Below, piece by piece: positions 6,516 through 37,195 of a DNA stretch of 37,195 nt. Numbering within the stretch: position 1 is the first letter of the stretch; every line of letters begins with the position of its first letter. A program made the position numbers and the translations under genes. The DNA comes from Candidatus Omnitrophota bacterium. Lineage in GTDB: Bacteria; Omnitrophota; Gorgyraeia; DAOVKU01. Below the pieces are notes generated by a model that saw only the letters and a list, made by a program, of their open reading frames with translations, searched no databases and was not told the DNA's origin. Location: assembly GCA_030631665.1 (NCBI GenBank), contig DAOVKU010000002.1, positions 1 to 37,195 of the forward strand, read 5' to 3'.

Positions 6516-6582
6516 GAAATTGTCAGCTAAGGCATGCAGTCAAAGTTGACAGATGAAAATTGAAAGTTAAGAGAGGAATTAA

Positions 6583-7987: not shown

Positions 7988-10900
7988 TTGAGAAAAAAAA
8001 TTATTTTTTTAATAGTCTTAATTCTCGGCTGTTTGAATATTACAGGCCTCATTGGAGCCCAAGATCAGGAGACTTATCTCTATGTTCTTAACCCACAGGA
8101 ACCCAACTTAAAAACGTGGCCTACCGGTTGGGGCAATGAACCGGATGAAGTTTCTGCCAGGATTTCTGATGGAAATGTGGTTGTTAGAGGCATTCGGGAA
8201 GAGCAGAGTTTCGGGGCGCTTCATAAAAATATATGTGTTGATTTTGAAAAGTACTCCTATCTTGAAATTGAAGTTAGCCGGGCTGCCAACTGTTGGTATA
8301 TAATTTTTAGTGGTCCTGAATTTGAAAATGGTTTTATAAGAATTCAGAAAGACACCGAAAAAACAGGAAAATTTAAATACAACCTCTGGAATTATCCCCA
8401 GCTCAGGAACAAAATGGAATTTGATATTCAAATTGGAGTGAGCGCTCCCGGGAAAAGCGGACAGAAAGATGTGGAAATGGTTTTCGGAAACCTGCGTTTT
8501 GTTGATACAGGGCGCCGGCGTCCTTTAAAAGGACCGAAATTGATTAGGCGCAATTTACCCCAGCCTATACTGAATGCCAATTACGATTTACCCAAGCCGC
8601 AGATTTCCAGAATTGTTTTTCTATCTTCACACAAGCAGGCTCCAGGGAAAGATTTTTATAAACCTAAGAAAAATATTTTTGAGATTTTCGCAAGACGCGA
8701 ATTGCCTGTTGAAACTCCAATTTCCAGACCGGTTTTTAATGATACAGGCAAAGAAACAATAAGCATTGAAAGCGATTGTTATAAGCTTATTTTCAGCAAG
8801 AAAAATGGCGCATTTCTGGGCATTAAAGATAAAGTAAAAAATGAAATTATATCTGTAGGTTCTGTGGATGGAATTTTATGGCGTCTTAATTTTCATAAAA
8901 GAAAAAGCATAAGCAATAAAGATTTTGATTCTGATTCAAAAGAGAGGCCTTTTAAATATAAATGGAAAAAGTCAAAAAAGCAGCTTTTGTTTTCTTATGA
9001 AGATAAAACCACAGATTTTAAGTTTACAATAACTATTTGCGCCTCAAAGGAAAACTATATAGATTTTAAGACAGAGATTAAAAATACCTACGAGCAGCCC
9101 ATTATTTTAGTTAATTTTCCCAAAGGGCTTACTTTTAAACTTGAGAAATTGAAACGTTTTATTTATCCTTTCCGAGGCGGTCTGGCTTTTAAGCCAGGTT
9201 TTTTTTTAGAAAGGCGTTATATATCTGAGTCACAATATCTTTTTAGCGATTATATAGCAGTAGAATTTGAGAATAGCAATTTATCTTTATATACCATACA
9301 AAATCCCAAGTGCTGGACACAGGCTACCATGAGCGCTGGCTATGATTCATATCAGGGAGGAGCGGGGTTTTATACTTATGCCCAGGCGACCTACATTAAA
9401 AGTAGTTCACGCTGGCGCAGCCCTGTCATTAGGATGCGCATTGGAGAGCCAACGGAAGAAAGCATACAGCATTATATAGAAGATAACGCCCTGAATAAAA
9501 TACCCGATCTTAATAAAAGAATTAGTAAGGATTTATTTTATAAATTATCTAAATCGGTTTTATTAAAATTTGACTTTGTCTGGATAGGTCAAAGTTTTAA
9601 AGAGGTGAAAGAGTTTATTGAAAAATTACCTTCGCCTACCCTTATTCACCCGGTAACTTTCTGGGACAAGGGATTCGATAAAAATTATCCTGATTACCTG
9701 CCGCCCAATGAAGATTTTGGAAGCCAGGAAGATTTAAGAGAGTTGGTTGAAGCAGCACGTGAATTGGGTGATTTGGTAATGCCCTATACCAACCCTACCT
9801 GGTGGAATGAAAGCGTAACTTTAGAAAAACTGGGAAAAGAAAATATTGCTGTTATAAAACTCGATGGCCAGATTCACGGTGAGTGCTACTGGGGAGTAAA
9901 CTGGGGCATAATTACCAGCCCCCATCATCCGCAGGTTATCAAGAGAACCCAGCAGACCGTCCGTGAATTTAAATATGACATACCTTGTGATATCCTTTTT
10001 GAAGACCAGCTGGGCTCCAGACCCTGGCAGTATGATTTAAATCCAAGAGCGAGGGGAGTAAATTTTTATAAACAGGGTTTGATAGATTTTGCTCGAAGGG
10101 ATTCGAAGCAAATCCCTGTTATGTGCGAAGGCGGATTTGACGGGTTGATGCCATACGTGATTGCTTTTTCTGATTTATCGGTTAACAATGCTCTTCCGCC
10201 GGATGAGACTTTTAATAGTTGGTATGGCAAAGGTAACTGGGAAGTATTTCCCTATGCTTTATATGTAGCGCATAATAAAAATGGTTTTTATCAGCACAAT
10301 CTTGCACATGAAGTTTTTACTAATTCAAAAGAACAGCTTACCTGGAATATGGCCTATGGGCATAATTTAAATCAGGGTTATTGGCCGGCTGCCTGGGAGA
10401 AAGAGCAGAAAAAATGGTTCTATATTGATGATGCCTTCCAGAAAGCTGTGGCCTGCCGTTTCTTTGGGAAGAAATTAACTGATTTTCAAAGGATGGGCAA
10501 GGAGATTACTTTTAGCCGTTTTGAAGACATAGGTATAGTTGCGAACCATTCCAAAGTCACGCCATATGAGATAGAAGGTTTTCTCTTACCGCCGGGCGGT
10601 TTTCTCGCCAAATCACAAGATGACAGTTTAGTAGCCGGTATATTCGATGTTTTTAATCACGACCTTTTAGCTGATGAGCACTTTATTATTGTAGAGAAAG
10701 AACCGGACAAAATCATAGTCAAGCAACCCGATGCAAAGAAGACTTTAATCAGTCTTAAGCGGCCGGACGCCTGGGATATGGCTGATAGGATTAATGTAAT
10801 TTGTGGGGGCCAACAGGTGCCGACGGCTGTGTCTGAAGACAAAATAACTTTCCTTTATGATTCTGCAGAAATTAATAGTAAGTATATATTAAATTATGAT

Positions 10901-16473: not shown

Positions 16474-16536
16474 ATGAGCACTAAAAACGTTATTTTCGAT
16501 TTAGGCGCAGTGATTGTCGAAATCGTAAGGAATTGA
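16474..16536 (+). pseudogene. 20-codon micro-ORF resembling the N-terminus of a HAD-family beta-phosphoglucomutase (possible gene relic)
   Basis: It encodes MSTKNVIFDLGAVIVEIVRN. HAD motif I is normally hhhFDLDGV(I/L). Here the nucleophile-type Asp is present, but the second Asp and the Gly are replaced (FDLGAV), and the frame stops after 20 codons. Confidence 0.25.
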
Positions 16537-16553
16537 GAAACTATTTAAAACCT

Positions 16554-21194: not shown

Positions 21195-21200
21195 AATTTT

Positions 21201-22355: not shown

Positions 22356-24449
22356 GTGAATAACACCCATTTTATAGAGAATTCTTATCTTAAGTTAGGC
22401 ATTGATAATTATGGCTCAATCACCTGCCTTTATAACAAAAAAACAGGCACCCAGTTTATAAAAAAAGATTCTGGCTCTGGCTGGAAATTGATTGTTTCCT
22501 TAAGGGGCTGGACTGAATATCCTGTCTTTGATTATATGAATCCCGGCGAGATAAGAAAGAATAAAAATAAAATTAGTGTTTCTTTCAAACACCTCACCGG
22601 CTTAGAAGGGGATTTTTTAAGTATATCCATGGATTTATATTTTAGGTTAAGGGGAGAAGATGTAATTTTAGAGGCCGGAATAAAAAATAATTCTCCAGAA
22701 GTTGTTCGGGAGGTATGGTTCCCTTTAATTTCCGGATTAACTAAAATATCTTCTTCAGAAAAAGATTCTTTTATTACCATTCCCCTGTGGATTGGTTCCA
22801 AATTTAGGAACCCAGTCAAGACCCTTCCTGAAAATTGGGTGCCCAAAGAGGGTAGTTTTTCCTGGAAGTTTCCGCTTTTGTATCCGGGCATTGCTTCCAT
22901 GAGCTGGATTGATTTCTATAATGAAAAAGAAGGGCTTTATTTTGCTTCTTACGATAAAACTTTCCAGACTACCGGCCTTGGTGCGCGCAGAAGAAAAGAG
23001 AAAGGTGATTTTCAGCTGGGTATAATAAAATATCCTTTTATTGAGCCTGGAGAGACATGGAAGTCAAAAGAATATATAATTTCAGCCCATAGAGGCGATT
23101 GGCACGCCGGTGCTAAAAAATACAGAAGATTTACAGATACCTGGATGGAGAAGATTAAAAGGCCCGACTGGATAAAACAGGCGCCCGGCCTATGTGATTT
23201 ATTTATGAAGCACCAGAATAAAAGGATTTATTTTAATTATGATAGATTGCCTTTAATTCAAAAGGAAAACTTAAAGAAAGGCCTGAATCTGCCTCTGTAT
23301 ATTTTTTCCTGGTATGGCAACGGGCATGACTCCGGCTATCCTGAATATGCGGCAGATAAGGATATGGGAGGAGAGGGGAAATTAAAAGAGGCCATAAGGG
23401 ATGTCAAAGAAAAAAAAGGCAAAGCGATACTTTATACTCAGGGACGTTTAATAGATTTTGCTACAAATTATTACAAGAACAAAGGTCATAAAGTTTGCAT
23501 TAAGAATGAAGACGGCATTTTTTATATTGATGAATACTCCTGGCCCATACAGGGCAGCATTTCGCCGCATAAGGTTTTTGCTATCGCCTGCCCCTCTACT
23601 AAAGAGTGGTCAAGACAGTTGAATAAACAGGTAGACTTGGTTATGTCTCTGGGGGCAGATGGTCTTCTTTTTGACCAGATAGGAGGGGATCATCCTTATC
23701 TTTGTTTTGACAAAACCCACCCCCACAAGAAACCGGCTATGGCCTTCGCCGGCAAAATCAAATTACTTAAAAACTTGCGTAAAAGAACCAAGAGAAAAAA
23801 TAAAAATTTCGCTATTATGGTAGAACTTGTCTGTGATTGTTTCCTGCAGTATGTTGATATGGTTCATGCCCACTGTGAAAATTTTAGGCCGGAAGGCAAT
23901 TTACTTCCCATGCCGGAACTTTACCGTTATACCTTTCCGGAACATATTCTCTCAAGCAGAGATGCTTATGAAGAAGAGGCCATTAATCAATCTTTTGTTT
24001 TGGGCTTGCGCCAGGAATACTGGCGCATGTTTGAGGCCTTTGAACACGTGGATGCCCGTTTTGAGAACGACCCCGAGCAGCTGCGGGTAAAAAATTATGT
24101 GACTAAAATGCTCAAAAGCAAGGCGCATCTAGAAAAAATATTTAAGTTAAAAAAGAAATGCCCTGAGCTTCTTATAGAAGGTATTTTTAAAGATGAAGAG
24201 GGCATAAGAGTTTCAGATAAAAAAGTAGAAGCAAAATTGTTTACTTCTAAACACGAAGAACATAAAGCAGTTGTTCTCTGGAATAAGGCGCTCATGAGAA
24301 AAAATATTAAGTTAGAAGTTAGCAGGAAAGACCATAGATATAAAGTATTGTATCCGGATAAAGAGATAAATAGAAAGACTATAAATCTAAAGCAATCTCT
24401 GAGTTTAAGCTTAGGCGCCGGAGAAATTTGTGCTGTGATAATAAGATGA
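22356..24449 (+). CDS. Cytoplasmic uncharacterised putative glycoside hydrolase/phosphorylase (TIM-barrel-like; possibly the family annotated DUF6259)
   Basis: 697 aa, no signal peptide, GTG start 8 nt after AAGGA. Colinear with the core regions of both giant proteins: YPEYAADKDMGGEGKLKEAIRDVKEKKG, IACPSTKEW, ADGLLFDQIGG, FAIMVELVCD. Confidence 0.8.
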   Translation: MNNTHFIENSYLKLGIDNYGSITCLYNKKTGTQFIKKDSGSGWKLIVSLRGWTEYPVFDYMNPGEIRKNKNKISVSFKHLTGLEGDFLSISMDLYFRLRGEDVILEAGIKNNSPEVVREVWFPLISGLTKISSSEKDSFITIPLWIGSKFRNPVKTLPENWVPKEGSFSWKFPLLYPGIASMSWIDFYNEKEGLYFASYDKTFQTTGLGARRRKEKGDFQLGIIKYPFIEPGETWKSKEYIISAHRGDWHAGAKKYRRFTDTWMEKIKRPDWIKQAPGLCDLFMKHQNKRIYFNYDRLPLIQKENLKKGLNLPLYIFSWYGNGHDSGYPEYAADKDMGGEGKLKEAIRDVKEKKGKAILYTQGRLIDFATNYYKNKGHKVCIKNEDGIFYIDEYSWPIQGSISPHKVFAIACPSTKEWSRQLNKQVDLVMSLGADGLLFDQIGGDHPYLCFDKTHPHKKPAMAFAGKIKLLKNLRKRTKRKNKNFAIMVELVCDCFLQYVDMVHAHCENFRPEGNLLPMPELYRYTFPEHILSSRDAYEEEAINQSFVLGLRQEYWRMFEAFEHVDARFENDPEQLRVKNYVTKMLKSKAHLEKIFKLKKKCPELLIEGIFKDEEGIRVSDKKVEAKLFTSKHEEHKAVVLWNKALMRKNIKLEVSRKDHRYKVLYPDKEINRKTINLKQSLSLSLGAGEICAVIIR

Positions 24450-25483
24450 AAAAGAAGATAAAAAAATTGACCCTCGGAGAACTTGCCAGGAAAGCTGGTT
24501 TTTCAACCGGCACGGTTTCCATGGCCTTGCGCAATGATCCTCTAATTAAAGAAAAAACCAGAAAATACGTGCAGGAGTTAGCGCGCAAGTTAAATTATAT
24601 TCCCAGCGCGCTGGGAAGGGCCCTGGCTACCAGAAGTACGCAGCAGATCGGCCTTACCATAACCGACATTACCAATCCGTTTTTCGCTGCAGTGGTTATG
24701 GGCGCGGAAACAGCGGCTGAAGCCAAAAAATATAATATCATTCTTTCTAATACTACCTACAATGCAGAAAAAGAAAAACAGTCCATAGAAATTTTTATGC
24801 AGGGGATAGTGGACGGGATAATAATTGACCCGGTAGAAAATAATAAAGATTTTTCATTATACAGGCAATTAGAGAAATTTGATATCCCGTTTGTTTTATT
24901 AAGAAAATTAACAGGTTTAAAAGATATTAATTTCGTTATGGATGATGACAGGAAAGCAGCTCGTATGTTGACCGGGCACTTGATAGATGAAGGGGCAAAG
25001 AAAATAGCTTATGTTGGCAGCACCAGATGCGGCGTAACAGATCACGATAGACTCTTGGGATATAAGGAAGAACTTAAAACTCACAATGCCCTTTTTAAAG
25101 AAGATTTTGTGTTTGAGCAGGCAAGCTTTGGTTTAAAAGACGGCATAGAGTGCGGAAGAAAAATTCTTGGCAGTCAGGAAAATTTTGATGCGGTTATAGC
25201 TTTTAATGATTTACTTGCTATCGGTATCATGGAAGCGGCCCGTGAAATGAATTTAAAGATTGGCAAAGATATTAAAATTGTGGGTTTTGATAATATCTTT
25301 TATGCTTCTTTAAAAGAGATTAATTTGACTACAGTAGAACTTGCAAAGTTTGAGTTAGGCAGGAAAGCAGCCGAAGTTCTTTTTGAATTAATGGAAGCTA
25401 AAAAAGAAAATAAAAAAACTAAATTAAAACAGATTCTTTTAGAACCGGAACTTATTGTAAGAAGGAGTAGTACCGGCAGATGA
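24446..25483 (+). CDS. LacI/GalR-family transcriptional regulator
   Basis: About 345 aa from ATG 24446 (ATGA overlap with the upstream stop); the ORF track's TTG at 24428 is unlikely. HTH LTLGELARKAGFSTGTVSMALRN, followed by a periplasmic-binding-protein-like sugar-binding core. Confidence 0.9.
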   Translation: MKKKIKKLTLGELARKAGFSTGTVSMALRNDPLIKEKTRKYVQELARKLNYIPSALGRALATRSTQQIGLTITDITNPFFAAVVMGAETAAEAKKYNIILSNTTYNAEKEKQSIEIFMQGIVDGIIIDPVENNKDFSLYRQLEKFDIPFVLLRKLTGLKDINFVMDDDRKAARMLTGHLIDEGAKKIAYVGSTRCGVTDHDRLLGYKEELKTHNALFKEDFVFEQASFGLKDGIECGRKILGSQENFDAVIAFNDLLAIGIMEAAREMNLKIGKDIKIVGFDNIFYASLKEINLTTVELAKFELGRKAAEVLFELMEAKKENKKTKLKQILLEPELIVRRSSTGR

Positions 25484-27918
25484 AGAACGATTACACAAAA
25501 TACGGACATTTTTCAAAAGACGCTAAAGAATTTATTATAACCAATCCCAATACACCGCGTCCCTGGATAAACTATCTTACCAACGGCACGTATTGTGCCC
25601 TGGTTTCTCAGACCGCAGCGGGTTTTAGTTTTTTCAGAGATTTTAAAACCAATAGAATACTGCGGTGGAACCAGGCCAATGTGCATTTTGACAGGCCCGG
25701 CCGATACATATTTATAAAAGACAAAGATACCCAAAAGGCCTGGAGCGCAAACTGGCAGCCCATAAGGGCTAAATATTCTAAATTTGAATGCCGTCATTCA
25801 TTAGGGTATACGAAAATTTTTCAAAAGAATCACGGCATTGAAAACCGGATAACTTATTTTATTCCGGAGGCAGAATCTTTAGAAGTGTGGCTGGTAAAGA
25901 TAAAAAATACAACAAATAAAAAAAGAAACTTATCTGTTTTTGCCTATTGCGAATGGATGCTCGGTGATTACAGACATGAATTAATCCGTCAGACTATTAT
26001 GGAGTTATATAACCGAGTGTATTTTGATAAAAAAAAGAAAGCTATTATTGCCTATCGAACCGCTGAATGGGAGCCTTTCGCTATAAAAGAGTATAAACAC
26101 AGAAATTTTTTGAGTTGGAGCCTGCCGGTTAAAAGTTTTGATTGTCAGAAAGACGCTTTTGTAGGACGCTACAATACAGAAGAAAACCCCCAGGCGGTCT
26201 TTAAAGGCAAATGCATAAATTCGACCTGTTGCGGCGAGGATGCCATAGGCGCAATGCAGACAGATATTATATTAGGCCCGGGCGAGGAAAAAGAATTCGT
26301 GGTTGTACTTGGCAGGGCGAAGGAAGAGAAATACATAGTCCCCGCGCTTAAAAAATATTTAAAGATATCTATAGCCAAAAAAGTCCTGGCTAAAACAAAA
26401 ACCTTATGGGATAAACGTCTTGGAAATATGTGGGTCCAGACGCCTGATAAAGATTTTAATAATCTGGTAAATATCTGGCTGAAATACCAGCTTTACATGA
26501 CTTGTTTTTGGGGCAGAGACGTATCTTTCTATCACGAAGGCACTTATGGGGGCAGGGGTTACCGGGATAATTGTCAGGACGCAGAGGGCATCCTTTCTTT
26601 AAATAGTAAAATAGCTTTAGATAAAATAAGGACTTTAGCCAGACTTATAAGACGCGACGGCACAAATGCCAGAGGCTGGTCGGATACCTTTGGGCCTTTT
26701 TCTCATAAGGCGGTTAAGGATAATCCAATGTGGCTGACTTCGACTGTGGCTGCTTATATTAAAGAAACAGGAAATATGGAAATTCTAAAAGAGAAAATGC
26801 CCTACTTAAAAGATAAATGGAGAGATGGTTCAACCAGAGAAGACATTAAGTGGAAGAAAGGTGCCATAGAAGACGGCAAGGGTTCGCTTTTCGAACATTT
26901 GTATAAACAATTACAATTTACCTATCATGATACAGGGTCACACGGTTTTCCTTTAATTGACCATTGCGATTGGAATGACGGCCTTGATGCGGTGGGCATA
27001 AAAGGAAAAGGAGAAAGTGTATGGATTGCTATAGGGCTGGTGCGTTCCCTGAAATTATTAAGCGAGATGGCTCTCTTAATTGGCAAAAAGAAAGAGGCCA
27101 AAGAATTAAAGCGGAAAGCTCAGAACTTATCCTGTCACATAAATAAAAAGGGCTGGGATAAGGAGTGGTATATAAGAGGTTTTAAGGATGATGGCTCACC
27201 ATTTGGAACACACAAAGACAAACAAGCCAGAGTCTGGCTTAATTCTCAAGCCTGGGCCATTATGGCAGACTTAGTGCCGGCTAAAAGATTACCTTTGGTT
27301 TTAAAGGCCATGGATAAATATCTTGAGAACGCTCACGGCCGGGACCTTTTCTGGCCTGCTTATACAAAATATGACTCCTCTATAGGCCGGGCAACTATGT
27401 TTTCCCCCGGCACAAAAGAGAATGCGGCTATTTTTAATCATGTGGTGGCTTTTTCTCTGGTAGCGGATTGCATGACAGGAAGGGGAGATAATGCCTATAA
27501 AGTTTTAAGTAAAGTTATGCCCAATAAACAGAGAGATATTGAGTTATACAAGGCAGAACCTTATGTCTTCAGTGAATACCTTATCGGTTCAGGGCATCCC
27601 TATTTATGCGGTGAAGGCAACTTTCACTGGATGACCGGCACAGCAGCCTGGATGTATATTGTGGCTACAGAATGGATTTTAGGCATAAGAAGAGAATATG
27701 ATGGATTATTAATTGACCCTTGCCTGCCTTCAAGCTGGAAAAAGGCCAGGATTATCAGGAAATTCAGAGGTACGAAATATATAATAGAGATAGAGAATAA
27801 AAAGGGGGTGAGCAAAGGCGTTAAGGCCATTTATTTAGACGGCGAGAAGTTAAAGTCTAATCTTATAAAACCAAAGATTGGAAGAAAAGAGTGTAAAGTA
27901 AAAGTTGTTATGGATTAA
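25480..27918 (+). CDS. GH94 glycoside phosphorylase, complete (812 aa)
   Basis: The length matches cellobiose/chitobiose phosphorylases. Catalytic-region motif GGRGYRDNCQDAEG (26551..26592). No signal peptide. ATGA overlap with the LacI stop. Confidence 0.9.
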   Translation: MKNDYTKYGHFSKDAKEFIITNPNTPRPWINYLTNGTYCALVSQTAAGFSFFRDFKTNRILRWNQANVHFDRPGRYIFIKDKDTQKAWSANWQPIRAKYSKFECRHSLGYTKIFQKNHGIENRITYFIPEAESLEVWLVKIKNTTNKKRNLSVFAYCEWMLGDYRHELIRQTIMELYNRVYFDKKKKAIIAYRTAEWEPFAIKEYKHRNFLSWSLPVKSFDCQKDAFVGRYNTEENPQAVFKGKCINSTCCGEDAIGAMQTDIILGPGEEKEFVVVLGRAKEEKYIVPALKKYLKISIAKKVLAKTKTLWDKRLGNMWVQTPDKDFNNLVNIWLKYQLYMTCFWGRDVSFYHEGTYGGRGYRDNCQDAEGILSLNSKIALDKIRTLARLIRRDGTNARGWSDTFGPFSHKAVKDNPMWLTSTVAAYIKETGNMEILKEKMPYLKDKWRDGSTREDIKWKKGAIEDGKGSLFEHLYKQLQFTYHDTGSHGFPLIDHCDWNDGLDAVGIKGKGESVWIAIGLVRSLKLLSEMALLIGKKKEAKELKRKAQNLSCHINKKGWDKEWYIRGFKDDGSPFGTHKDKQARVWLNSQAWAIMADLVPAKRLPLVLKAMDKYLENAHGRDLFWPAYTKYDSSIGRATMFSPGTKENAAIFNHVVAFSLVADCMTGRGDNAYKVLSKVMPNKQRDIELYKAEPYVFSEYLIGSGHPYLCGEGNFHWMTGTAAWMYIVATEWILGIRREYDGLLIDPCLPSSWKKARIIRKFRGTKYIIEIENKKGVSKGVKAIYLDGEKLKSNLIKPKIGRKECKVKVVMD

Positions 27919-27937: not shown

Positions 27938-28510
27938 ATGAATAAGATTTTAAAAATTTCGGCAATATCTATTTTTTTAGTACTTATGTCAATTTCTTCG
28001 TTGAAAGCCGCCGTAGACTATATTTATTTGTTCGACAGCAAAAATCCGAGCATTGAGGACTGGAAGAACGAATTTTATGATAGTTTTTCAAGTAATGCTG
28101 GAATAGAATTAAAACAATATTCAGAGGGCAGCATAGCTGTGATTGAGGGCACTTCTAAGAAAGAGAGTTTTGGTTGTGTATATATGGAGGTAGAGGTTAA
28201 TCTGGACAAATATCCTGTTTTGGAAATTGATGTCGATTCTGTTTCTAAATATTGGTATATAATTATTATCAGTGACCAATTAAAAGGAAAGGAAGAAGAT
28301 GCTCAGGGTAATAAGTTTATTAGAGTTCAACCTGATGTAAATAGAAAAGGCAAGTCCACGTATAATCTTAAGAGTATCACCGGTCTCACCGGCACTCAAT
28401 CTTTTATATTGAAAGTCGGTGTTGCCACAGGCGATGTATATGTGCCCGTCAAGGAACAAACAATGTCTTTTAATTATCTCAGATTAAAAGGAAAGAAAAA
28501 GCGCAATTAA
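27938..28510 (+). CDS. Small secreted protein, A-type module (190 aa)
   Basis: RBS GAGGGGAG. Signal peptide ...SISSLKA|AVDY. The mature part is colinear with giant-1 aa 28-173 and with 29136..29687 (ESFGCVYME, DKYPVLEIDVDSVSKYWYIII, KGKSTYNLKSITGLTG, FILKVGV, LRL). Confidence 0.85.
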   Translation: MNKILKISAISIFLVLMSISSLKAAVDYIYLFDSKNPSIEDWKNEFYDSFSSNAGIELKQYSEGSIAVIEGTSKKESFGCVYMEVEVNLDKYPVLEIDVDSVSKYWYIIIISDQLKGKEEDAQGNKFIRVQPDVNRKGKSTYNLKSITGLTGTQSFILKVGVATGDVYVPVKEQTMSFNYLRLKGKKKRN

Positions 28511-28540
28511 ACTATGTATAAAAATAGAGGGCAAAAGAGT

Positions 28541-29080
28541 ATGAAAAAGATTTTATTTAGTTTGGTTGCGATGATTATGTTTGGGATATTTACTTCAGCT
28601 ATTCAAGCAGAAATTCTTTGGCTGGAGGACTTTTCAGATGTTAATGACTGGATGGTAATATCTGATCCGGGCGAAGGTTCAACTATCACAATTTCCGATA
28701 ATTTAGGAGCGATGTATATTGACAAAGATACTAATGTGGCTGCCTTTACTCCGGTTCAGACCGAGACTAACTTTATTCCATTTGATTTAACAAAAAAATC
28801 CAAATATATTATAGAGTGGAAGGTTGACCACTTAACAGATTCGGTTAGCTGGGATATTGCTATTGACGAATTTGATGCAGATAAACAATATATAAATACC
28901 ATTTGGAACATTTATCCATCAGCAGGAAATATCGCCGAAAAAGGTAAATTTTCAAAAAGCTTAGGCAGTAAAACTTGGAATGTTAAGACCGCTTATATTA
29001 TACCTAAAGTAACTATTCATACAGGAAACGCAAAGCAGACAGTTTACTTTACTTATATAAAGGTAACAAAAAAGCGATAA
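28541..29080 (+). CDS. Small secreted protein, B-type module (179 aa from ATG 28541; alternative ATG 28514)
   Basis: Signal peptide MKKILFSLVAMIMFGIFTSAIQA|EILW. The mature N-terminus LWLEDFSDVNDW mirrors giant-2 TVWTEDFSDVSDW and the AW.E(H/D)F.P.K..W openings of the giant-2 C-terminal repeats. Confidence 0.8.
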   Translation: MKKILFSLVAMIMFGIFTSAIQAEILWLEDFSDVNDWMVISDPGEGSTITISDNLGAMYIDKDTNVAAFTPVQTETNFIPFDLTKKSKYIIEWKVDHLTDSVSWDIAIDEFDADKQYINTIWNIYPSAGNIAEKGKFSKSLGSKTWNVKTAYIIPKVTIHTGNAKQTVYFTYIKVTKKR

Positions 29081-29135
29081 GAGGATAAGCAATACACAAA
29101 GATTTAACTAACTAATTTTAGAAAAAGGAGTTGAG

Positions 29136-29687
29136 ATGTCTAAAATCAACTTAGTAATTTATAGTGTAGTATTAATAATTTCTTTAGTGTTTGCTTATAC
29201 AGTGCATTGCGAGAAAGGTGCTATAGATATTTTTAAAGCTGAGAATGAAAATATAAGTGATTGGCATGAAGGTTGGGCAGGTGAACCCATAGAAGCAACT
29301 ATTGAAATAAAAAAGGATGAAGCTATTATTGAAGGTGCAACACAAGATAAAGCTTTTGGCAGCGTTCATAAGAACATGACCATAGATTTAGATAGATACT
29401 CTGTAATAAAAATTGATGTGAAGTCGGTTAGCTACTATTGGTATTTAATTGTCAGCGGAGAACAATTTCATTTTGACCCCACCAATCCAAGATTAGCTGA
29501 TGGCTATGCTCTCTTACAAGAATCAACTAATAAAACCGGGAAATACAAATATGACCTTAAAAAAATTACCGGTTTATCCGGTAAACAAAATTTTGATTTA
29601 CAAATTGGCGTGGGAAGATTTAGTGGAGACGGTAATATAGGTTGCAAAGCGGTTATTAAAAGTTTAAGGTTTATTCAAATAGATTAA
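29136..29687 (+). CDS. Small secreted protein, A-type module (183 aa)
   Basis: RBS AAGGAG. N-terminal hydrophobic signal. KAFGSVHKNMTIDLDRYSVIKIDVKSVSYYWYLIVSG, NKTGKYKYDLKKITGLSGKQNFDLQIGV, LRF. This is the closest relative of the giant-1 N-terminal module. Confidence 0.85.
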   Translation: MSKINLVIYSVVLIISLVFAYTVHCEKGAIDIFKAENENISDWHEGWAGEPIEATIEIKKDEAIIEGATQDKAFGSVHKNMTIDLDRYSVIKIDVKSVSYYWYLIVSGEQFHFDPTNPRLADGYALLQESTNKTGKYKYDLKKITGLSGKQNFDLQIGVGRFSGDGNIGCKAVIKSLRFIQID

Positions 29688-29730
29688 AGAATTAAACAAA
29701 AAAAGCCTTTAAAAAGACAAAAATTTCTTC

Positions 29731-29773
29731 TTGACAGGTTATTTTTTATCTGTTAATATTGAAGCGCTTCAAT
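29731..29773 (+). promoter_or_regulatory. Promoter plus perfect 16-bp palindromic operator upstream of the PEP-CTERM gene
   Basis: TTGACA (29731..29736), 17 nt, TAATAT (29754..29759), overlapping the palindrome ATTGAAGCGCTTCAAT (29758..29773). The ORF track's TTG 'start' at 29731 is this -35 box. Confidence 0.6.
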
Positions 29774-29823
29774 TAATAATCAAATCGTTTTTCTTTAAAA
29801 AGATAAAGATAAAGAAGAATAAG

Positions 29824-30396
29824 ATGAAAAAGTTAAAAAGTTGGTTGTTGTTGGTGAGTATTTTTATTCTCATCCCTCTTGGTGAGGCAAAGGCCACAAC
29901 GGTTGGGTTTGTGCCTAGTGATGGATCCGCTTCGATCGGTAGTAATTCTTATTTATATGTGGATATCCATGATGTGGAGAATTTGTGGTTTTTCGATATT
30001 GGTTTTAGCTTTGATCCAGATGTACTGCAGATAGCAAAGGGCCCTAAGGGTGATTATATAATTGGTAGTGGGGGATTTTTTGGTGAGAAGGACAGTGGAT
30101 TTAGTAAGAGCGGTAGTAATGTTGATGGGACAGTTGGAGCCGGGGAAAATATATTAGACCCGAATGATCCAGGTCAGTCGGGCAGTGGCACATTATTCAT
30201 AACAAAGTTTAACGCGGTGGGATTAGGAACTACTCCGCTTACTTTCTCCCATGTTACTTTATGGGACCCCGATATGAATGTTATTCCCTGTGAAGTAACG
30301 AACGGCACTTTTACGGTTATCCCCGAATTGACCAGTCTCTTGTTACTTGGTACGGGGTTGGTGTGTTTACTCGGCTTGAAAAGAAAGAGCTGTTAA
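29824..30396 (+). CDS. PEP-CTERM-anchored cohesin-like domain protein (190 aa)
   Basis: ATG 29824. Signal peptide ...PLGEAKA|TTV. Cohesin-like blocks: YLYVDIHDVENLWFFDIGFSFDPDVLQI and GSGTLFITKFNAVGLGTTPLTF. C-terminal sorting signal IPELTSLLLLGTGLVCLLGLKRKSC (PEP-like motif, TM helix, basic tail). Confidence 0.8.
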   Translation: MKKLKSWLLLVSIFILIPLGEAKATTVGFVPSDGSASIGSNSYLYVDIHDVENLWFFDIGFSFDPDVLQIAKGPKGDYIIGSGGFFGEKDSGFSKSGSNVDGTVGAGENILDPNDPGQSGSGTLFITKFNAVGLGTTPLTFSHVTLWDPDMNVIPCEVTNGTFTVIPELTSLLLLGTGLVCLLGLKRKSC

Positions 30397-30702: not shown

Positions 30703-33700
30703 ATGAAAAAATTCCTATTACTTGGTTTAGTGGCTGGTTTTTTTGCGTTGAATCCTTTTTTGGCTCAAGCGACCGTTTGGACAGAGGATTTTAGCGATGT
30801 AAGTGATTGGTCAGCTGCCGAAGGAACCACTTTTACCAGTGATGGTTCCGCAGCTAGATTAGAGGATCTCTCTGATGGTACGGGTTGTACTACCTGGATA
30901 GGTACCAGAGTTTCCTACCAACAAGGGGATTTTGTATCTTTAACTGTAAGCGATATCGATTCTCTTCAAGGCGCCCAGTGGTATTATATAATCCATCAAT
31001 ATAATAATGCTGGGAGTTACATAGGCCAATTAGACGTTTTTCCTCCTTCGACTGATATAGGTATTTTTAATAGTTACTTAACTGCTCACCATCCCGATCT
31101 TGCTAGTTACGACCCGCAACTAAGGATTTATACTCCTGGTGGCAGTACAGGTTACGCTGAGTTTGACGATTTATCTGTTGTTCCGGCCGATGATGTAACT
31201 TTTATCACCTTTGATAATTTTGATTCTCACAAGTGGATTCCTCTTCCAGAACTTGATCCACCAAAACAACCCACCATTTCTTATTCTCCGGCTTATGCCA
31301 GTCAGGGGACGAATGCCTTGAAAGTCGAGTGTCCTGTTTGGGACCCTTTGATAGAAAATAACTTTACCGGCCTTCAAATTTCTCCCCAAATTCCGTCCAA
31401 TCCAGGTGCATCTGTATCTGAAGACTGGAGTAATATTGAAACCTTTAAAATGGAAGCTTGGTTAGAAGAGATTCCGGATGATCCCCCTGGAATGGTTTTG
31501 AGGCTCCGTAATAGTAATGGTGAGCAATGGGACAAATGGCACGTGGTTCAGATTTATAATCGCTGGAACGAACTAAGTTGGAATGTTACCGATTGTCCTT
31601 CACATATTATTAGTGATGTCGCCTACGTAGCTTTAGTGCCGGATTGGTACAACGACCAGACTTTACCTCATTTGACTTTACATTTAGATGATATGAGATT
31701 GTCTAAAAGCGATGGCTCTCAGGAATCATGGGACACTTGTGATGGACCTTCGCATGCCTGGTATGCTGATAGTAATGGCAGTCGAGCCGGATTGACTCAT
31801 AATGATGCCTATTTAACAGAAGCAGGTTCTCTATTCTTGGGATGGTTATATGGGGGCATAGATAATGTGGCTGTGGCTAATTCTGGAAGTATTGACCCGG
31901 CCCTCGATATCTACGGATGTAAGTATGTCAAGGCTAACATTAAATGTTCAAATAAAAATGTTCCTATCAGTCTATCTTTCTACGATGGAAGCGTGGAGAT
32001 TGAAACCACTACCCAGACAGTCAGCGTAGCCAATAATTGGAGCTTACTTGTCTGGGCAATTCCTTTTGATTCTACGTTTAATTATAAAAATATTCAAAGA
32101 GTAAAAGTGATAACTAATGATATTGATGTCTATACCGATGCCTACATCTATATGGATAATTTAAAATTTGGAGCAAACATTACTACACCTACCCAATTTA
32201 CTATTGTATCTGGTGATGAAAAGAATAAATTATACTGGCGCAACCCTGCCAACCCTGACTTGGTTGGCATAGAAGTTATAAGAAATACGGCCCACTATCC
32301 GACCTCAAGAACAGATGGCACCTCAATTTATAATAGCACTCTTGAAGAAAGAGAGGATTACCGTTCTTTTGAAGATGCATTATTAACTAATGGCACCACT
32401 TACTACTATAGTATTTTTGCCTATGATGCCTCTGGGGATAATGACCCAGCCCAAAATTTTGGGCGACCAAATTTCCCCATTATTATCAGTAATGATTATT
32501 ATGAAATAAGCCTATCGGCTCACAATGGCTCTATGGAATATATTAAAGACAAAACCACTCAAGAGAATATTATTATCAATTCTCCTAATAGGGCCTTGTG
32601 GGAAATTCTTTTTGATGAAAACGAAAGGCATGATGCTTCAGAGTTTTCATCTATTTCAAGCGAAAAAAACTTTTCTTATAGTACAGGAGGAAATACGCAT
32701 ACCCTGGTTTATGATTATAACGTGGATGGAGAACAATTTAGTATTGTAATAACCATAGAACAAACCGATAGCAATTACTTTGATGTGATGACTCAAATTA
32801 ATAATCACTTTGGCAAAGGTATCCAGGAGATAAAGACTAAATTTTATTTAGACCGTAGCCAGGTGAAACGCTTTTTTTATCCATACAAAGAAGGCATTTG
32901 TTACCTAAAACAGTTCTTTACGGATAAGATGAAGGCCTGGGTTAATCCTAAAGATAATAAGGCTATCTATCAGCATTTGTTTGCTGATTTTGCTGCCTTA
33001 GAGACTGATTCGGGAAGCAATATCACCTTTTATATGATACAGAGTTCTACTGAGAGATTTCAACCGACCGCCCTTATAATCGATTACGATGAATTATTTG
33101 GAGACGTCAATTATTACTATCAGCATAAGTTTTTCACCTATATTTATAATGATACTTCCTGGACAAGCCCGACTTACCGGATTAGAGTGTCTTCTCCTTT
33201 GGATACTACCGTTTATGACTATGCTGCTGATAACGCATTAGATTCGCCTGTTACTCTGGAAAGCAAAGTCAGAGATACTTATGCTTATGACCCTGACTTA
33301 TACGATAAATTAAAAAACAGTATCTTTGTTAAGACAGGGTTCTACGATATGATTGAACAGCTCAGCATTGACTCACACGATATCTTTAACTATGTTGCTA
33401 ATACCTTAATGCCGATGTTACCCTCTCCATGCATTTTGACCGTAACTCATTACTGGCTACCTTTGGATGATAGCCCTGATGCCGTAATTGAATTTACAGA
33501 AAATAACCAGCCGGATGCTCTGCCTCCGAGCCCATACTATTCTTCCGGCAATACTTACGAAAGCGCAGAACAGGAATTTCAAAATATATTTGATAAAGCT
33601 CATGAAAGAAACATTTTGGTATCACCATTTTCTAATTCTACTGTATGGAACGACTTGGACGAATATACAGATGCACAAAGAGAAGGTGTCGCCAAGCGTT

Positions 33701-36700
33701 ATTTAGACGGAGGATTTACCGTCACTGACTTTGGCCAAAAAGGAGGATATATCTCTAGTCCATGGCACCCGGATGTTAAAGTAGTTAATAGAAGGACGAT
33801 TGAAGGTATCGGCTTTTTTAACGACCCCAGCGACCCAATGTATGACCCTGGCAGTCCATACAATGAAGCAGGTTATAAAGGCTATAGAGAATATGGCGCA
33901 GATGTCTTATTTGAAGACCAGATGGCAGCCAGACCTTGGGATTATGACACAAACGATTCCGTACCTTACCTTGAGGACTATCCAACTTTGAAAGATTACA
34001 CTGCCTACGGCGAAGGAATGTTAAGGATGGCTGAGGAAGACTGCCAGCGGATGCCGATATTTACCGAAGGTTTGTGGGACAGAATGATTGACTTTATGTA
34101 TGGCTTTTGTGGTTCTATTATAGAGAAGCACTGGCACTTAGACAAAAATCACCAGAGAGACAGTAAGTATTCGCACTGGGGCCCTGAGTTTGAAAATTGG
34201 GAAATGTATCCTATGGCAAACCTATTAACACATCATAAAGTTGCTTTTTACCAACATAACCTTACTTACTGGACCTTATTCTGCAATAAAGAACCTGAAG
34301 ACAGCAATAGAAACCTGCTTACCTATGACGCTGTTTATGGATATAATTTAGGATTTGTTGTGGTAGAGCCCGTTACTGAGACCAATTTAGGCTGGTTAAG
34401 AGTTGGCGACGCTTATCAGAAGGCGCTTTTATCCAAGACCTTTGGCAAAAAGATGATTGATTTTCACAACATAAACGGAAACAACAAACACGTCCAGAGC
34501 CAGTTTGAGAGCGATTCAGGCACAATTACCATCATAGGTAACTTCTATGAGGATGTTACTTATGATATGGGAGATTATACACTTTCGCCACTTGGATTTA
34601 TAGCTACCAGTGAAAATGGAGATTTAGTTGCCGGTGTATTTTCTAATGAATTTAATAACGCCCTTCTTTCAAGCGGCGAACATTATCTAATTGTAGAAAA
34701 ATCAGCCGATGGAAACATAATAACTGTCAAGCAACCCAGAGGAACCGATACAGCTTTAATTATTGATAGGCCCAGCGATTGGATAAATGACAATGAGATT
34801 TATTTGCTCAAAGTTCTGTCTAATGGCACAGAGTTGTTAGGTGACTTTACTAATAAAACAGCAACTACACTTGAATTTGATTTTAATGTCACTGACCCTG
34901 TTAGCGGATATAGCGTCAATGGATATAAAATTTATGGCAATCAGTCTTCTTCTATAAAGCCACCTTTCTTTATATCAGTGCCACAAGCAAGAAGTGCAGG
35001 TCCGACTTCGGAGAAGATAACCTGGATGACAGATGAAGCGGCGAATAGCCTTGTAGAATACGGCACAACAATCAGTTATGGTTCAACTGTAAGCGACGCC
35101 AACTATGTAACTGACCACCAAATAATTATAACAGGTTTAACAGAAAGTCAAACTTATCATTATAGAGTTCAGTCTACAGATGTTGATGGGCATACTGCCA
35201 CTAGTGGTGATTATACTTTTGTAGTTGGTGGCACAGCCTGGCAAGAACATTTTGATCCGGCAAAATCTACCTGGGTAGAACAAGGAATTACACTAACGGA
35301 TGAACCAGGTACAACAGCCACCTTGACCGAAAGCGACCCTGTCAATAGTTATGGAAAAGCCGAATCTGAACTGATTACCTTAGATGTTGATACCTATTCT
35401 AAATTATTGGTCACCTCAACCGCTGTAGATACTGACTGTAACTATACCATCCAAATTCAAGAAGAGGGTGGTGCCTATGCTTCCAAGAACGTCATCGAAG
35501 GTATCACTCAACCCGGCACTCAAGTTGTTAATATTGCTACTGTGATGGGATGGAGCGGGGTAATGTCATTTAAGATAGGTGTTTGGGTTGATGGAGAAGG
35601 AAAAAGTGTAGTTCTGGATCTAATTGAAATAAAAGAAGCTGACAGTAATTCTCCTGTCATTACCTCAGGCCCTGGTGTCAGCCCCGGAGATACACAAGCC
35701 ACTATTATTTGGACAACGGATGAAGAAGCCGATAGTGTGGTTGAGTATGGCTTAGATGCTAATTATGGCTCTAGTGTTTCAGATACTGCCATGGTTATAG
35801 ATCACTCTCTGCAATTAACCGGCTTAACAGCCAATATTTTGTATCATTATAGAGTAAAATCCACAGATCCTTTTGGTAATACTGTCACCAGTAGTGATTA
35901 CACTTTTACTACTTTAGCTGGTGGTACAGCCTGGCAAGAACATTTTGATCCAGCAAAATCTACCTGGGCAGAACAAGGGATTACACTAACGGATGAACCA
36001 GGTACAACAGCCACCTTGACCGAAAGCGACCCGGTCAATAGCTATGGAAAATTAGAATCAGAAGTTATTACCTTAAGCTTATCTGCCTACCCTCAATTAA
36101 TTATTACTTCCACAGCTATAGATGAGAACTGTAGTTATCATATAGGCATCCAAGAAGAAGGCGGGGCTTACGCCTATAAGAATGTTCTTGAGGGCATTGC
36201 TCAACCCGGCACCAACGTAGTTGATATTGCTTCTGAAATGGGTTGGAGCGGCACCAAATCCTTTAAGATAATTATCTGGATAAATGGTGAGAGTAAATCC
36301 GCTGTCTTTGATCTTATCAGTATCGGAACTACCACAACAGCTTGGATAGAACATTTTGATCCTATCAAGCCCAGCTGGAACGAAGCAGGAGCCACCTGGA
36401 ATGATATCACCGGCACTACCGCCATACTTACAGAGAATGATCCCGTACTTAGTTATGGCAAGGTTGAGTCCGAAGTTATTACTTTAGATTTATCTACTTA
36501 TCCTCAATTAGTAGTTTCCACAACCTCAATAGATACTAACTGTAGTTATAATATAGGAATCCAGGAAGAAGGCGGGGCTTATGTTTATAAAAATGTATTG
36601 GAAGGCGTTTCTCAGCCTGGCAGTAATGTAGTAGACCTTGCAGCTGAAATGGGTTGGAGCGGACTAAAATCATTTAAGATAGTTGTTTGGGTAAACGGTG

Positions 36701-37195
36701 AAAGCAAGTCTATCACCTTTGATTTTATTAGTGTAGGAACTGAGACTGCAGCTTGGTGTGAAGATTTTAATCCTATAAAACCAAGTTGGAACGAGGTTAG
36801 TGCTACTTGGAACGATATAGTAGGCACCACAGCCATTTTAACCGAAAGCGACCCCGCAGTTAGCTATGGCAAAGTCGAATCAGAAATTATCACCTTAGAT
36901 TTATCTGTATATCCTCAATTAATAGTGACTTCGACAGCTATAGATGAGAACTGTAGTTATCATATAGGCATCCAGGAAGAGGGTGGTGCTTATGCTTATA
37001 AGAATGTGATGGAGGACATTACCAAACTTGGCACCAACGTAGTTGATATTGCAACTGAAATGGGTTGGAGCGGCACCAAATCCTTTAAGATAGTTATCTG
37101 GGTTAATGGAGAAAGTAAATCTGTTACCTTTGACCTTATTAGTGTAGGAACTGAGACTGCAGCTTGGTGTGAAGATTTTAATCCTATAAAACCAA
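30703..37195 (+). CDS. Second giant secreted multi-domain glycan-active protein, 3'-truncated by the window edge (at least 2164 codons); absent from the ORF track
   Basis: ATG 30703 lies 5 nt after GAAGGAG. I translated frame 1 codon by codon to 37194 and found no stop. Signal peptide MKKFLLLGLVAGFFALNPFLAQA|TVW. Domains by eye:
- B-type module
- two jelly-roll CBM-like modules
- FN3
- the same uncharacterised catalytic-like core as giant 1
- two PAP-N-type FN3 domains (W.TDE..S.VEYG...YHYRV.S.D)
- at least 5 copies of a 137-aa module. Confidence 0.9.
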   Translation, partial: MKKFLLLGLVAGFFALNPFLAQATVWTEDFSDVSDWSAAEGTTFTSDGSAARLEDLSDGTGCTTWIGTRVSYQQGDFVSLTVSDIDSLQGAQWYYIIHQYNNAGSYIGQLDVFPPSTDIGIFNSYLTAHHPDLASYDPQLRIYTPGGSTGYAEFDDLSVVPADDVTFITFDNFDSHKWIPLPELDPPKQPTISYSPAYASQGTNALKVECPVWDPLIENNFTGLQISPQIPSNPGASVSEDWSNIETFKMEAWLEEIPDDPPGMVLRLRNSNGEQWDKWHVVQIYNRWNELSWNVTDCPSHIISDVAYVALVPDWYNDQTLPHLTLHLDDMRLSKSDGSQESWDTCDGPSHAWYADSNGSRAGLTHNDAYLTEAGSLFLGWLYGGIDNVAVANSGSIDPALDIYGCKYVKANIKCSNKNVPISLSFYDGSVEIETTTQTVSVANNWSLLVWAIPFDSTFNYKNIQRVKVITNDIDVYTDAYIYMDNLKFGANITTPTQFTIVSGDEKNKLYWRNPANPDLVGIEVIRNTAHYPTSRTDGTSIYNSTLEEREDYRSFEDALLTNGTTYYYSIFAYDASGDNDPAQNFGRPNFPIIISNDYYEISLSAHNGSMEYIKDKTTQENIIINSPNRALWEILFDENERHDASEFSSISSEKNFSYSTGGNTHTLVYDYNVDGEQFSIVITIEQTDSNYFDVMTQINNHFGKGIQEIKTKFYLDRSQVKRFFYPYKEGICYLKQFFTDKMKAWVNPKDNKAIYQHLFADFAALETDSGSNITFYMIQSSTERFQPTALIIDYDELFGDVNYYYQHKFFTYIYNDTSWTSPTYRIRVSSPLDTTVYDYAADNALDSPVTLESKVRDTYAYDPDLYDKLKNSIFVKTGFYDMIEQLSIDSHDIFNYVANTLMPMLPSPCILTVTHYWLPLDDSPDAVIEFTENNQPDALPPSPYYSSGNTYESAEQEFQNIFDKAHERNILVSPFSNSTVWNDLDEYTDAQREGVAKRYLDGGFTVTDFGQKGGYISSPWHPDVKVVNRRTIEGIGFFNDPSDPMYDPGSPYNEAGYKGYREYGADVLFEDQMAARPWDYDTNDSVPYLEDYPTLKDYTAYGEGMLRMAEEDCQRMPIFTEGLWDRMIDFMYGFCGSIIEKHWHLDKNHQRDSKYSHWGPEFENWEMYPMANLLTHHKVAFYQHNLTYWTLFCNKEPEDSNRNLLTYDAVYGYNLGFVVVEPVTETNLGWLRVGDAYQKALLSKTFGKKMIDFHNINGNNKHVQSQFESDSGTITIIGNFYEDVTYDMGDYTLSPLGFIATSENGDLVAGVFSNEFNNALLSSGEHYLIVEKSADGNIITVKQPRGTDTALIIDRPSDWINDNEIYLLKVLSNGTELLGDFTNKTATTLEFDFNVTDPVSGYSVNGYKIYGNQSSSIKPPFFISVPQARSAGPTSEKITWMTDEAANSLVEYGTTISYGSTVSDANYVTDHQIIITGLTESQTYHYRVQSTDVDGHTATSGDYTFVVGGTAWQEHFDPAKSTWVEQGITLTDEPGTTATLTESDPVNSYGKAESELITLDVDTYSKLLVTSTAVDTDCNYTIQIQEEGGAYASKNVIEGITQPGTQVVNIATVMGWSGVMSFKIGVWVDGEGKSVVLDLIEIKEADSNSPVITSGPGVSPGDTQATIIWTTDEEADSVVEYGLDANYGSSVSDTAMVIDHSLQLTGLTANILYHYRVKSTDPFGNTVTSSDYTFTTLAGGTAWQEHFDPAKSTWAEQGITLTDEPGTTATLTESDPVNSYGKLESEVITLSLSAYPQLIITSTAIDENCSYHIGIQEEGGAYAYKNVLEGIAQPGTNVVDIASEMGWSGTKSFKIIIWINGESKSAVFDLISIGTTTTAWIEHFDPIKPSWNEAGATWNDITGTTAILTENDPVLSYGKVESEVITLDLSTYPQLVVSTTSIDTNCSYNIGIQEEGGAYVYKNVLEGVSQPGSNVVDLAAEMGWSGLKSFKIVVWVNGESKSITFDFISVGTETAAWCEDFNPIKPSWNEVSATWNDIVGTTAILTESDPAVSYGKVESEIITLDLSVYPQLIVTSTAIDENCSYHIGIQEEGGAYAYKNVMEDITKLGTNVVDIATEMGWSGTKSFKIVIWVNGESKSVTFDLISVGTETAAWCEDFNPIKP
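32476..34962 (+). other. Uncharacterised catalytic-core-like region, copy in giant protein 2
   Basis: LPSPCILTVTHYW, ISSPWHPDV, DVLFEDQMAARPWDYD, MPIFTEGLWD, FYQHNL and HYLIVEKSADGNIITVKQP match giant-1 blocks in the same order. Confidence 0.65.
35233..37195 (+). repeat. In-frame tandem coding array of the 137-aa B-type module
   Basis: Module starts (GC(C/T) TGG = AW) fall at 35236, 35929, 36340, 36751 and 37162. The first interval is 693 bp (module plus FN3). The others are exactly 411 bp. The array runs off the window end. Confidence 0.9.

Follow-up and report, generated by a model that had tools for sequence, protein, structure and literature searches.

A candidate unannotated CBM-like module family in small secreted proteins and giant enzymes of an Omnitrophota locus

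The window analysed here, a stretch of 37,195 nucleotides forming the start of contig DAOVKU010000002.1 of a Candidatus Omnitrophota bacterium (assembly GCA_030631665.1), carries three consecutive small genes, designated S1, S2 and S3, which lie between the genes of two giant proteins, giant-1 and giant-2. The small genes encode little more than a single module, and related modules were detected in both giants. The copies in the window are listed below in amino acids (aa) of the respective protein, with the types assigned by sequence comparison.

27938..28510, + strand: S1, standalone secreted module protein of 190 aa; signal-like segment at ~aa 1-24, module at ~aa 25-187; A/core-type, S1 subfamily
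28541..29080, + strand: S2, standalone secreted module protein of 179 aa; module at ~aa 24-178; divergent B-type subfamily
29136..29687, + strand: S3, standalone secreted module protein of 183 aa; module at ~aa 26-183; A/core-type, S3 subfamily
8060..8512, + strand: giant-1 N-terminal module, aa 25-175, found by blastp directly after the signal peptide; A/core-type
30769..31197, + strand: giant-2 N-terminal module, aa 23-165, directly after the signal peptide; divergent member with the WxEDFSDVxDW motif
35233..35640, + strand: giant-2 repeat R1, aa 1511-1646, found among blastp self-repeats; core-family, 67.0 bits
35926..36330, + strand: giant-2 repeat R2, aa 1742-1876; 67.2 bits, 74% identical to R1
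36337..36741, + strand: giant-2 repeat R3, aa 1879-2013; 73.0 bits
36751..37152, + strand: giant-2 repeat R4, aa 2017-2150; 70.1 bits
37162..37195, + strand: start of a fifth giant-2 repeat (AWCEDFNPIKP...), cut by the window end

The initial annotation of this DNA had described three consecutive small genes that each encode a signal peptide and one module, and open reading frames (ORFs) of this kind were indeed found at these positions. S1, S2 and S3 all start with a basic and hydrophobic N-terminal signal-like segment, to which AlphaFold2 (AF2) assigned a helix or coil of low confidence, and then consist of one module of ~145 aa; no conserved lipobox cysteine was found in any of the three. 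An alternative start exists for S2 at 28514, the ATG at 28541 being favoured by the alignment of its homologs. Orthologs with 46-70% identity in other metagenomes indicate that S1-S3 are real genes: S1 shares 54% identity with its ortholog in a related locus (L001), S3 46-64% with the homologs P0002-P0006, and S2 50-62% with eight homologs. The GC content across the small-gene cluster (28001-30000) is 33%, as compared with 38-42% in the rest of the window.

The A-type proteins S1 and S3 had been proposed to match the N-terminus of giant-1, and blastp identified them as clear paralogs of it (E values from 1e-17 to 5e-29). S3 aligned with giant-1 aa 5-172 at E=5e-29 and S1 with giant-1 at E=2e-17, and the two small proteins share 33% identity with each other (E=1e-27). 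Against the family profile S1 scored 157.7 bits, and giant-1 144.9 bits over aa 25-176; a module architecture like that of giant-1 also occurs in P0030 and P0031. Judged from their sequences, S1, S3 and the giant-1 module are old subfamilies that have been conserved separately. The C-terminal repeats of giant-2, of which R2-R4 follow each other with a tandem period of 411 nt, likewise fall within the A/core family (hhalign 98.9%, E=1e-17; 67-73 bits for each of the four complete repeats), and R1 is followed by an fn3 or purple-acid-phosphatase-N-like domain according to a Pfam match.

Giant-1 combines a DUF6259-like core with a GH99-like domain, the latter matching PDB entry 4ad1 (E=8e-15). 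Between aa 258-929 of giant-1 and aa 593-1360 of giant-2 the identity is 28% (E=3e-79), which indicates that both giants possess the same catalytic core. By sequence no solved relative of the DUF6259 core was found, and a literature search for DUF6259, DUF5696 or the TGWSG motif returned nothing. Giant-1 also contains a direct repeat of 270 nt (12104-12373 and 14819-15088, 2715 nt apart, 94% identical) that lies within a duplicated region of ~440 aa; this repeat could reflect gene conversion between the duplicated domains or an assembly collapse. Both giant-1 aa 1123-1565 (39%) and aa 1578-2474 (65%) match the same GH99-like protein of an Elusimicrobia metagenome-assembled genome (MAG), L004, and from these alignments giant-1 resembles two enzymes joined into one, a module-plus-DUF6259-type and a GH99-like one.

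Further members were sought by word-indexed searches of 5.8 billion clusters and by an exhaustive HMMER search of a set of 1.84 billion proteins, clustered at the 50% identity level. The former returned just five relatives for S3 and eight for S2, and almost no additional ones with the enriched alignment; a scan of GTDB species genomes with A-type peptide patterns revealed no relative. HMMER with the mature A-type profile identified 151 representatives at E<=1e-3, 75 at E<=1e-10 and 27 at E<=1e-30, and ~300 domain copies were found upon re-scanning these matches. An enriched family profile was then built from 158 of the matched domains and re-tested on the modules of the window. The module is ~135-150 residues long and is characterized by an N-terminal x(E/D)xFxxxxxW strand, a Y/F-G turn, DxDxxPxLxIxV, a W-x-L strand and TG-xx-Y-(D/N)-L...TG(W/L)SG...F. 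Conservation of >=88% across the family is confined to four columns, one Trp and three Gly; several aromatic positions are conserved as well.

The modules had been reported to fit no named family, and comparison with Pfam, NCBIfam and PDB, by sequence and profile, led to the same result; this covers dbCAN and CAZy families in so far as a structure or a Pfam model represents them. With hmmscan, S1-S3 and the giant N-termini showed no Pfam match over the modules at E<=1, and a Pfam scan of 46 diverse members at the same threshold revealed only isolated, marginal matches under the curated cut-offs, among them CBM30 (E=0.006) and CBM96 (E=0.06) in one member each. Neither NCBIfam (2026) nor Pfam-A (2025) contains a family that scores above its gathering cut-off for the module, and phmmer and hmmsearch of PDB with the A, B and enriched profiles gave no match, to a carbohydrate-binding module (CBM) or otherwise. 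In particular, no significant sequence or hidden Markov model (HMM) similarity was found to CBM86, CBM29, CBM4_9, CBM22, CBM16, CBM11, CBM30 or CBM6, so that in these comparisons the module was not placed in any well-characterized CBM or lectin family. The public name of members is 'hypothetical protein'; the one exception, a 'discoidin domain-containing protein', owes its name to other domains. The family is an unannotated one of a well-known kind, that of the beta-jelly-roll modules with which carbohydrate-active enzymes are equipped for accessory or binding purposes.

The AF2 models of S2 (predicted local distance difference test, pLDDT, 89.1; predicted template modelling score, pTM, 0.81) and of S3 (pLDDT 82.7, pTM 0.74) are discrete all-beta folds of 10-11 strands in the same strand order. 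When PDB was searched with both models by Foldseek, CBM86 (6sgf) ranked first or close to first for either model; further CBM matches were CBM29, CBM4, CBM22, CBM16, CBM11, CBM15, CBM61, CBM30 and CBM6, and receptor-binding domains of phage tailspikes were also returned. A BFVD search gave a similar picture, with only fold-level tail-fibre or CBM-like domains. The matched fold class, galactose-binding-domain-like or CBM beta-jelly-roll, is a two-sheet sandwich of ~8-11 antiparallel strands; it was hit at a Foldseek probability of 1.0 but with TM ~0.45-0.6. The guess of the initial annotation that the modules adopt a jelly-roll or CBM-like fold thus agrees with these models, in which a beta-sandwich, putatively a jelly-roll, of the CBM type is predicted.

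The family is spread over a wide range of architectures. Single-domain proteins of <=260 aa number 29, some of them truncated fragments of larger proteins (e.g. P0031), and 20 proteins are module-only tandems (two- and threefold, one fourfold); in larger proteins the module is N-terminal in 21, in the C-terminal half in 25 and internal or mixed in 58, and tandem arrays reach five to six copies. Fusion partners comprise DUF6259 (at least 11 of ~60 proteins scanned), GH99-like, GH5 cellulase, GxGYxYP putative glycoside hydrolase (GH), rhamnosidase-like six-hairpin, CE2/GDSL esterase, CBM6, F5/8-type-C, PA14 and LamG domains, and some family members carry SLH, T9SS or PEP-CTERM (P0015) surface anchors. 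The module thus occurs as a contiguous domain, predicted to fold independently (AF2 pLDDT 83-89), within carbohydrate-active enzymes, as does a CBM in the generic sense of CAZy, and the range of architectures in which it is found is the one typical of CBMs. One standalone member, P0049 (156 aa), is encoded in a phage-like region of contig JAANSU014010697.1 (L006, 5336-5806; GCA_024449705.1) close to RusA, to genes resembling P22 Y8K6 and an HTH repressor, and to a large number of tiny ORFs, and the module may travel on phages or prophages too. A viral origin was considered in view of this contig and was not retained, as the BFVD matches are fold-level ones only. In the Elusimicrobiota MAG contig JBDRNC010000004.1 (L007, 3-7862) a protein of >2620 aa with numerous fn3, LamG and purple-acid-phosphatase-N-like domains harbours an internal B-type module (aa 460-603, 35.4 bits), so that the rare B type serves as a building block of giant surface proteins as well.

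The gene order of the window, in which all large ORFs are located on the + strand, is as follows.

64-1872, + strand: GH94 phosphorylase
1997-6515, + strand: three T2SSE-type ATPases (569, 364 and 569 aa)
6583-7860, + strand: T2SSF platform protein, directly upstream of giant-1
7988-15454, + strand: giant-1, 2488 aa
15451-16467, + strand: GH130
16533-18830, + strand: GH65
18903-22352, + strand: ABC solute-binding protein (SBP) and two permeases
22356-24449, + strand: DUF6259 protein, 697 aa
24428-25483, + strand: LacI regulator
25480-27918, + strand: GH94, second copy
27938-29687, + strand: S1, S2 and S3
29815-30396, + strand: PEP-CTERM protein, 193 aa, immediately downstream of the small genes
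30703 to the window end, + strand: giant-2, >2164 aa, running off the window

Within 37 kb the window thus contains an ABC sugar importer and four genes of glycoside phosphorylase families (two GH94, one GH130 and one GH65), a set that points to energy-saving, phosphorolytic glycan catabolism. The GH65 of the window has an 81% identical counterpart in a MAG of Omnitrophota and a 71% identical one in a MAG of Elusimicrobiota; within 10 kb of the matched GH65 genes the module was found only in L007, as the B-type copy described above. S1-S3 follow immediately on the LacI and GH94 genes, with spacers of 19, 30 and 55 nt, and a sigma-70-like site was detected only after S3, at 29731-29759, from which we infer that the small genes are co-transcribed with the LacI and GH94 genes. 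That site belongs to the gene of the protein at 29815-30396, which had been called cohesin-like; no match to a cohesin HMM was found. Its C-terminus is PEP-CTERM-like (Pfam E=0.09), and the protein has a weak NCBIfam match to the flocculation protein PepA (E=8e-4).

Related loci in other genomes were compared with the window. L001 shows the order LacI, S1-like, S3-like, S2-like and giant-2 ortholog; S3-like and S2-like genes stand side by side in L003; and L002 carries an S3-like gene, a gene for a PEP-CTERM protein and an S2-like gene whose product is itself PEP-CTERM anchored. Apart from the anchor, no Pfam domain is present in the PEP-CTERM protein of L002 (624-1265, 213 aa), which is possibly another divergent module. 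When the loci were scanned for ORFs in six frames with the profiles of the family and of the B type, the protein was not detected, but no comparison was dedicated to it. On ENA contigs an A-type gene follows that of a 1390-aa DUF6259 enzyme, and three small unannotated genes (199, 184 and 182 aa), candidate module genes in the position of S1-S3, follow that of a 690-aa DUF6259 protein.

The giant-2 ortholog of L001 (7371-12413) is 39% identical from aa 167 onward and has a core-family repeat at aa 1540-1672, whereas its N-terminal region of ~220 aa is different and no module was detected in it with the A, B, repeat or enriched family profiles. The sequences suggest that the N-terminal domain was swapped between giant-2 orthologs. 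The idea that each giant enzyme is accompanied by free-standing paralogs of its own leading module is consequently not a conserved rule, since this ortholog, lacking a detectable N-terminal module, adjoins all three small genes.

A syntenic order was found in L004, namely LacI, the fourfold-module protein P0016, the GH99-like enzyme, an SBP with permeases, HAD, GH65 and GH130. The GH99-like enzyme of L004 is 65% identical to giant-1 aa 1578-2474, and GH65 and GH130 are 57% and 59% identical to those of the window. It is encoded by a separate gene (932 aa, 12022-14820), so that module protein and GH99-like enzyme are separate neighbours in L004 but one polypeptide, giant-1, in the window.

Taken together, we propose with moderate confidence that S1-S3, the N-termini of both giants and the C-terminal array of giant-2 share one unannotated, extracytoplasmic, CBM-like and non-catalytic glycan-binding module, a reading drawn from the size of the family, the predicted fold, the architectures, the lack of a catalytic signature and the gene context. 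Glycan binding is the most likely function by analogy with CBMs, and among the functions offered by the initial annotation the architectures favour substrate binding and disfavour a general export tag, as copies are also internal and C-terminal. In the proposed mechanism the module would hold the large secreted enzymes, with their DUF6259-like core and GH99-like domain, on their polysaccharide substrate, and free S1, S2 and S3 would be soluble or surface-associated glycan-binding proteins that capture or mark it. The small proteins, co-transcribed in this scheme with the LacI regulator and a GH94 phosphorylase, would act alongside the phosphorylases of the locus (GH94, GH130 and GH65) and the ABC importer in an Omnitrophota/Elusimicrobiota-like diderm cell. 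As the trio of standalone subtypes is kept together in other genomes, its members probably differ in specificity or act jointly. From the GH99-like/GH130/GH65 context a mannose- or glucose-containing polymer may be named, speculatively, as the substrate.

Several points weigh against this proposal. The Foldseek matches are fold-level only (TM 0.45-0.6, 9-18% identity, at a probability of 1.0), and the same list also holds Eph ligand-binding domains, CIA30 and Cry toxin domains, showing that the fold serves protein-protein recognition as well. Direct profile comparison of A with B without signal peptides was not significant (E=0.25), and the B type would be linked to the family transitively, through profile-profile scores (88-97%), rather than by direct similarity. 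Lastly, no anchor was found for S1-S3 in this window, which leaves both the periplasm and the outside of the cell as their location.

The protein-recognition domains among the Foldseek matches bear on a cellulosome-like alternative, in which the module would mediate docking or assembly between proteins instead of binding glycan, and would tether the giants to each other, to S1-S3 or to a cell-surface scaffold such as the PEP-CTERM protein at 29815-30396. Its gene stands immediately downstream of the small genes, some homologs of the module are PEP-CTERM anchored themselves, and the three standalone subtypes occur together in L001, and S3- and S2-like genes in L002 and L003, as would be expected of partners. 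However, arrays of up to five to six copies and promiscuous fusion to unrelated catalytic domains across phyla, including Paenibacillus, are the pattern of a CBM; neither cohesin nor dockerin was matched by Pfam in any window protein that was scanned, S1-S3, the PEP-CTERM protein and both giants included (giant-2 in its in-window part, as its C-terminus lies beyond the window); and the L001 ortholog of giant-2 is devoid of a detectable N-terminal module even though the small genes are present. We consider such a docking role fairly unlikely.

The absence of direct similarity between A and B raises the question whether the two types are non-homologous, i.e. two unrelated, look-alike small beta-sandwich families. 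This appears quite improbable, even if it would account for several observations besides the E value of 0.25 obtained with the mature profiles. The B type is without the Y/F-G and TG(W/L)SG motifs, S2 reached only 8.5 bits with the family profile in the HMMER search, and the match claimed initially between the B type and the 137-aa repeats of giant-2 did not hold, as hhalign gave E=0.08 over the last strand only and these repeats belong to the A/core family. (A first comparison of A with B, at E=0.0019, was discarded, since it had included the signal peptides and was thereby inflated.) On the other hand, the enriched family profile aligned to the B-type alignment over ~138 collinear columns (hhalign 94.1-96.6%, E 1e-7 to 6.5e-10) and still at 87.8% after removal of the giant-2 N-terminus; the S2 and S3 models have their strand order and CBM86 (6sgf) as top PDB match in common; and B-type genes always stand beside A-type genes. 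Furthermore, P0113/P0165 of Paenibacillus odorifer (WP_076305328.1) is a link between the types: the module begins with IEDFTDVSDW, as in the B type and giant-2, and goes on with the core motifs YGSV...YDLEEYPTLTVDV...KWALKV...TGKQTYNLKALTGWSGKKTF.

The position of the giant-2 N-terminus could be defined further. The module alone aligned with the family profile in full length (hhalign 94.8%, E=5e-8, 130 columns) and scored 16.9 bits in hmmsearch. A match of S2 to it, as claimed before, was seen by blastp when signal peptides were included (E=5e-5), but is mainly due to the family-wide WxEDFSDVxDW motif: a B-type profile built without giant-2 matched giant-2 only over aa 24-45, the VWTEDFSDVSDW motif, where it scored 14.7 bits as against a maximum of 8.5 among ~2,700 scored shuffles. 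On these alignments the giant-2 N-terminus is a divergent member with the family-wide N-terminal motif and not a specific B-type paralog. The superfamily uniting A and B that had been suggested initially is thus upheld transitively, at the profile level, by full-length homology to the enriched profile, but not by direct comparison of the types; it would consist of a core (S1, S3, the giant-1 N-terminus and the giant-2 repeats) and of the giant-2 N-terminus and S2 as divergent branches.

It seems very improbable that the module serves as a tag in export or assembly, or acts as an intramolecular chaperone, and is recognized by the type II secretion/type IV pilus-like machinery encoded at 1997-7860, with the small proteins as co-secreted substrates or competitors. 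The location of the module directly after the signal peptide in both giants and the three T2SSE ATPases and T2SSF immediately upstream of giant-1 would agree with such a role, as would the type II secretion-like loci that reportedly precede Omnitrophota giant genes, with carbohydrate import systems close by (bioRxiv 10.1101/2023.11.21.568195). Most copies, however, are not N-terminal (25 proteins with copies in the C-terminal half and 58 with internal or mixed ones), and giant-2 itself has at least four C-terminal ones. Moreover, Firmicutes members with SLH anchors carry the module, where such machinery is not implied, and a detectable N-terminal copy is missing from the giant-2 ortholog of L001.

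That S1-S3 are themselves enzymes, e.g. small jelly-roll glycanases or lyases, is extremely unlikely and a catalytic function of the module was rejected: some jelly-roll folds are catalytic (GH16, GH11, GH12-type) and the NopAA xyloglucanase domain is among the Foldseek matches, but only W and G columns, and no acidic or His column, reach 88% conservation (the best being two Asp of DxDxxP at 65-70%), tandem repetition is typical of binding modules, and the module (~140 aa) is smaller than any jelly-roll glycanase known to us.

A bolder extension of the glycan-binding proposal would be a secretion-coupled attack or foraging by Omnitrophota/Elusimicrobiota-like ultra-small or predatory bacteria, in which giants secreted by a type II-like route are aimed at a glycan on the surface of another organism (e.g. 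of the alpha-mannan type, given the GH99-like domain) and the S1/S2/S3-type trio, possibly a hetero-oligomer, marks or captures the target. The module would then represent a new CBM family with a new class of ligand and a role in cell-cell interaction as opposed to simple nutrient scavenging; we regard this scenario as distinctly unlikely.

If binding is confirmed, a new CBM family would be founded that comprises ~150 sequence clusters now unannotated in Pfam, NCBIfam and PDB, and would provide a handle on the substrates of the uncharacterized DUF6259 and GH99-like enzymes of Omnitrophota and Elusimicrobiota. Biochemical tests are practical, because the cultivable P. odorifer has the family member WP_076305328.1. 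The conserved trio of free-standing subtypes is unusual and could show how phosphorylase-based loci in diderm candidate phyla capture polymer.

With CBM86, the xylan-binding module of Roseburia intestinalis (6sgf), and other jelly-roll CBMs the module has in common its predicted beta-sandwich of ~130-160 residues and its occurrence, singly or in tandem, in fusion with glycoside hydrolases, esterases and surface anchors; it differs from them in its low similarity (9-18% identity, TM ~0.45-0.6), in the lack of a significant match to a Pfam CBM HMM and in a motif set of its own. Non-catalytic surface glycan-binding proteins (SGBPs) and CBM-only proteins occur in polysaccharide utilization loci, for instance in Bacteroidota. 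S1-S3 resemble these proteins in being small and secreted, with a predicted fold of the binding type and no catalytic domain, and in being encoded beside enzymes and importers in a regulated glycan locus. Unlike in Bacteroidota, there is no SusC/D here, import being assigned to an ABC transporter and degradation to the phosphorylases GH94, GH130 and GH65; S1-S3 also have no conserved lipobox cysteine, some of their homologs are PEP-CTERM anchored instead, and the fold family is another one.

Closest in gene context are the giant genes of Omnitrophota, for which type II secretion-like loci upstream, carbohydrate import systems nearby and unannotated CBM-like beta domains detected by structure prediction only are described in the passages retrieved from that study (bioRxiv 10.1101/2023.11.21.568195). 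The giants described in these passages reach >=30,000 aa, as opposed to ~2,200-2,500 aa here, and contain CBM35-like repeats of ~200 aa with dockerin-like helices, the same passages being silent on the present module and on standalone copies. In its order of T2SSE/T2SSF, giant secreted protein and SBP-dependent sugar import, the window nevertheless resembles the loci portrayed there.

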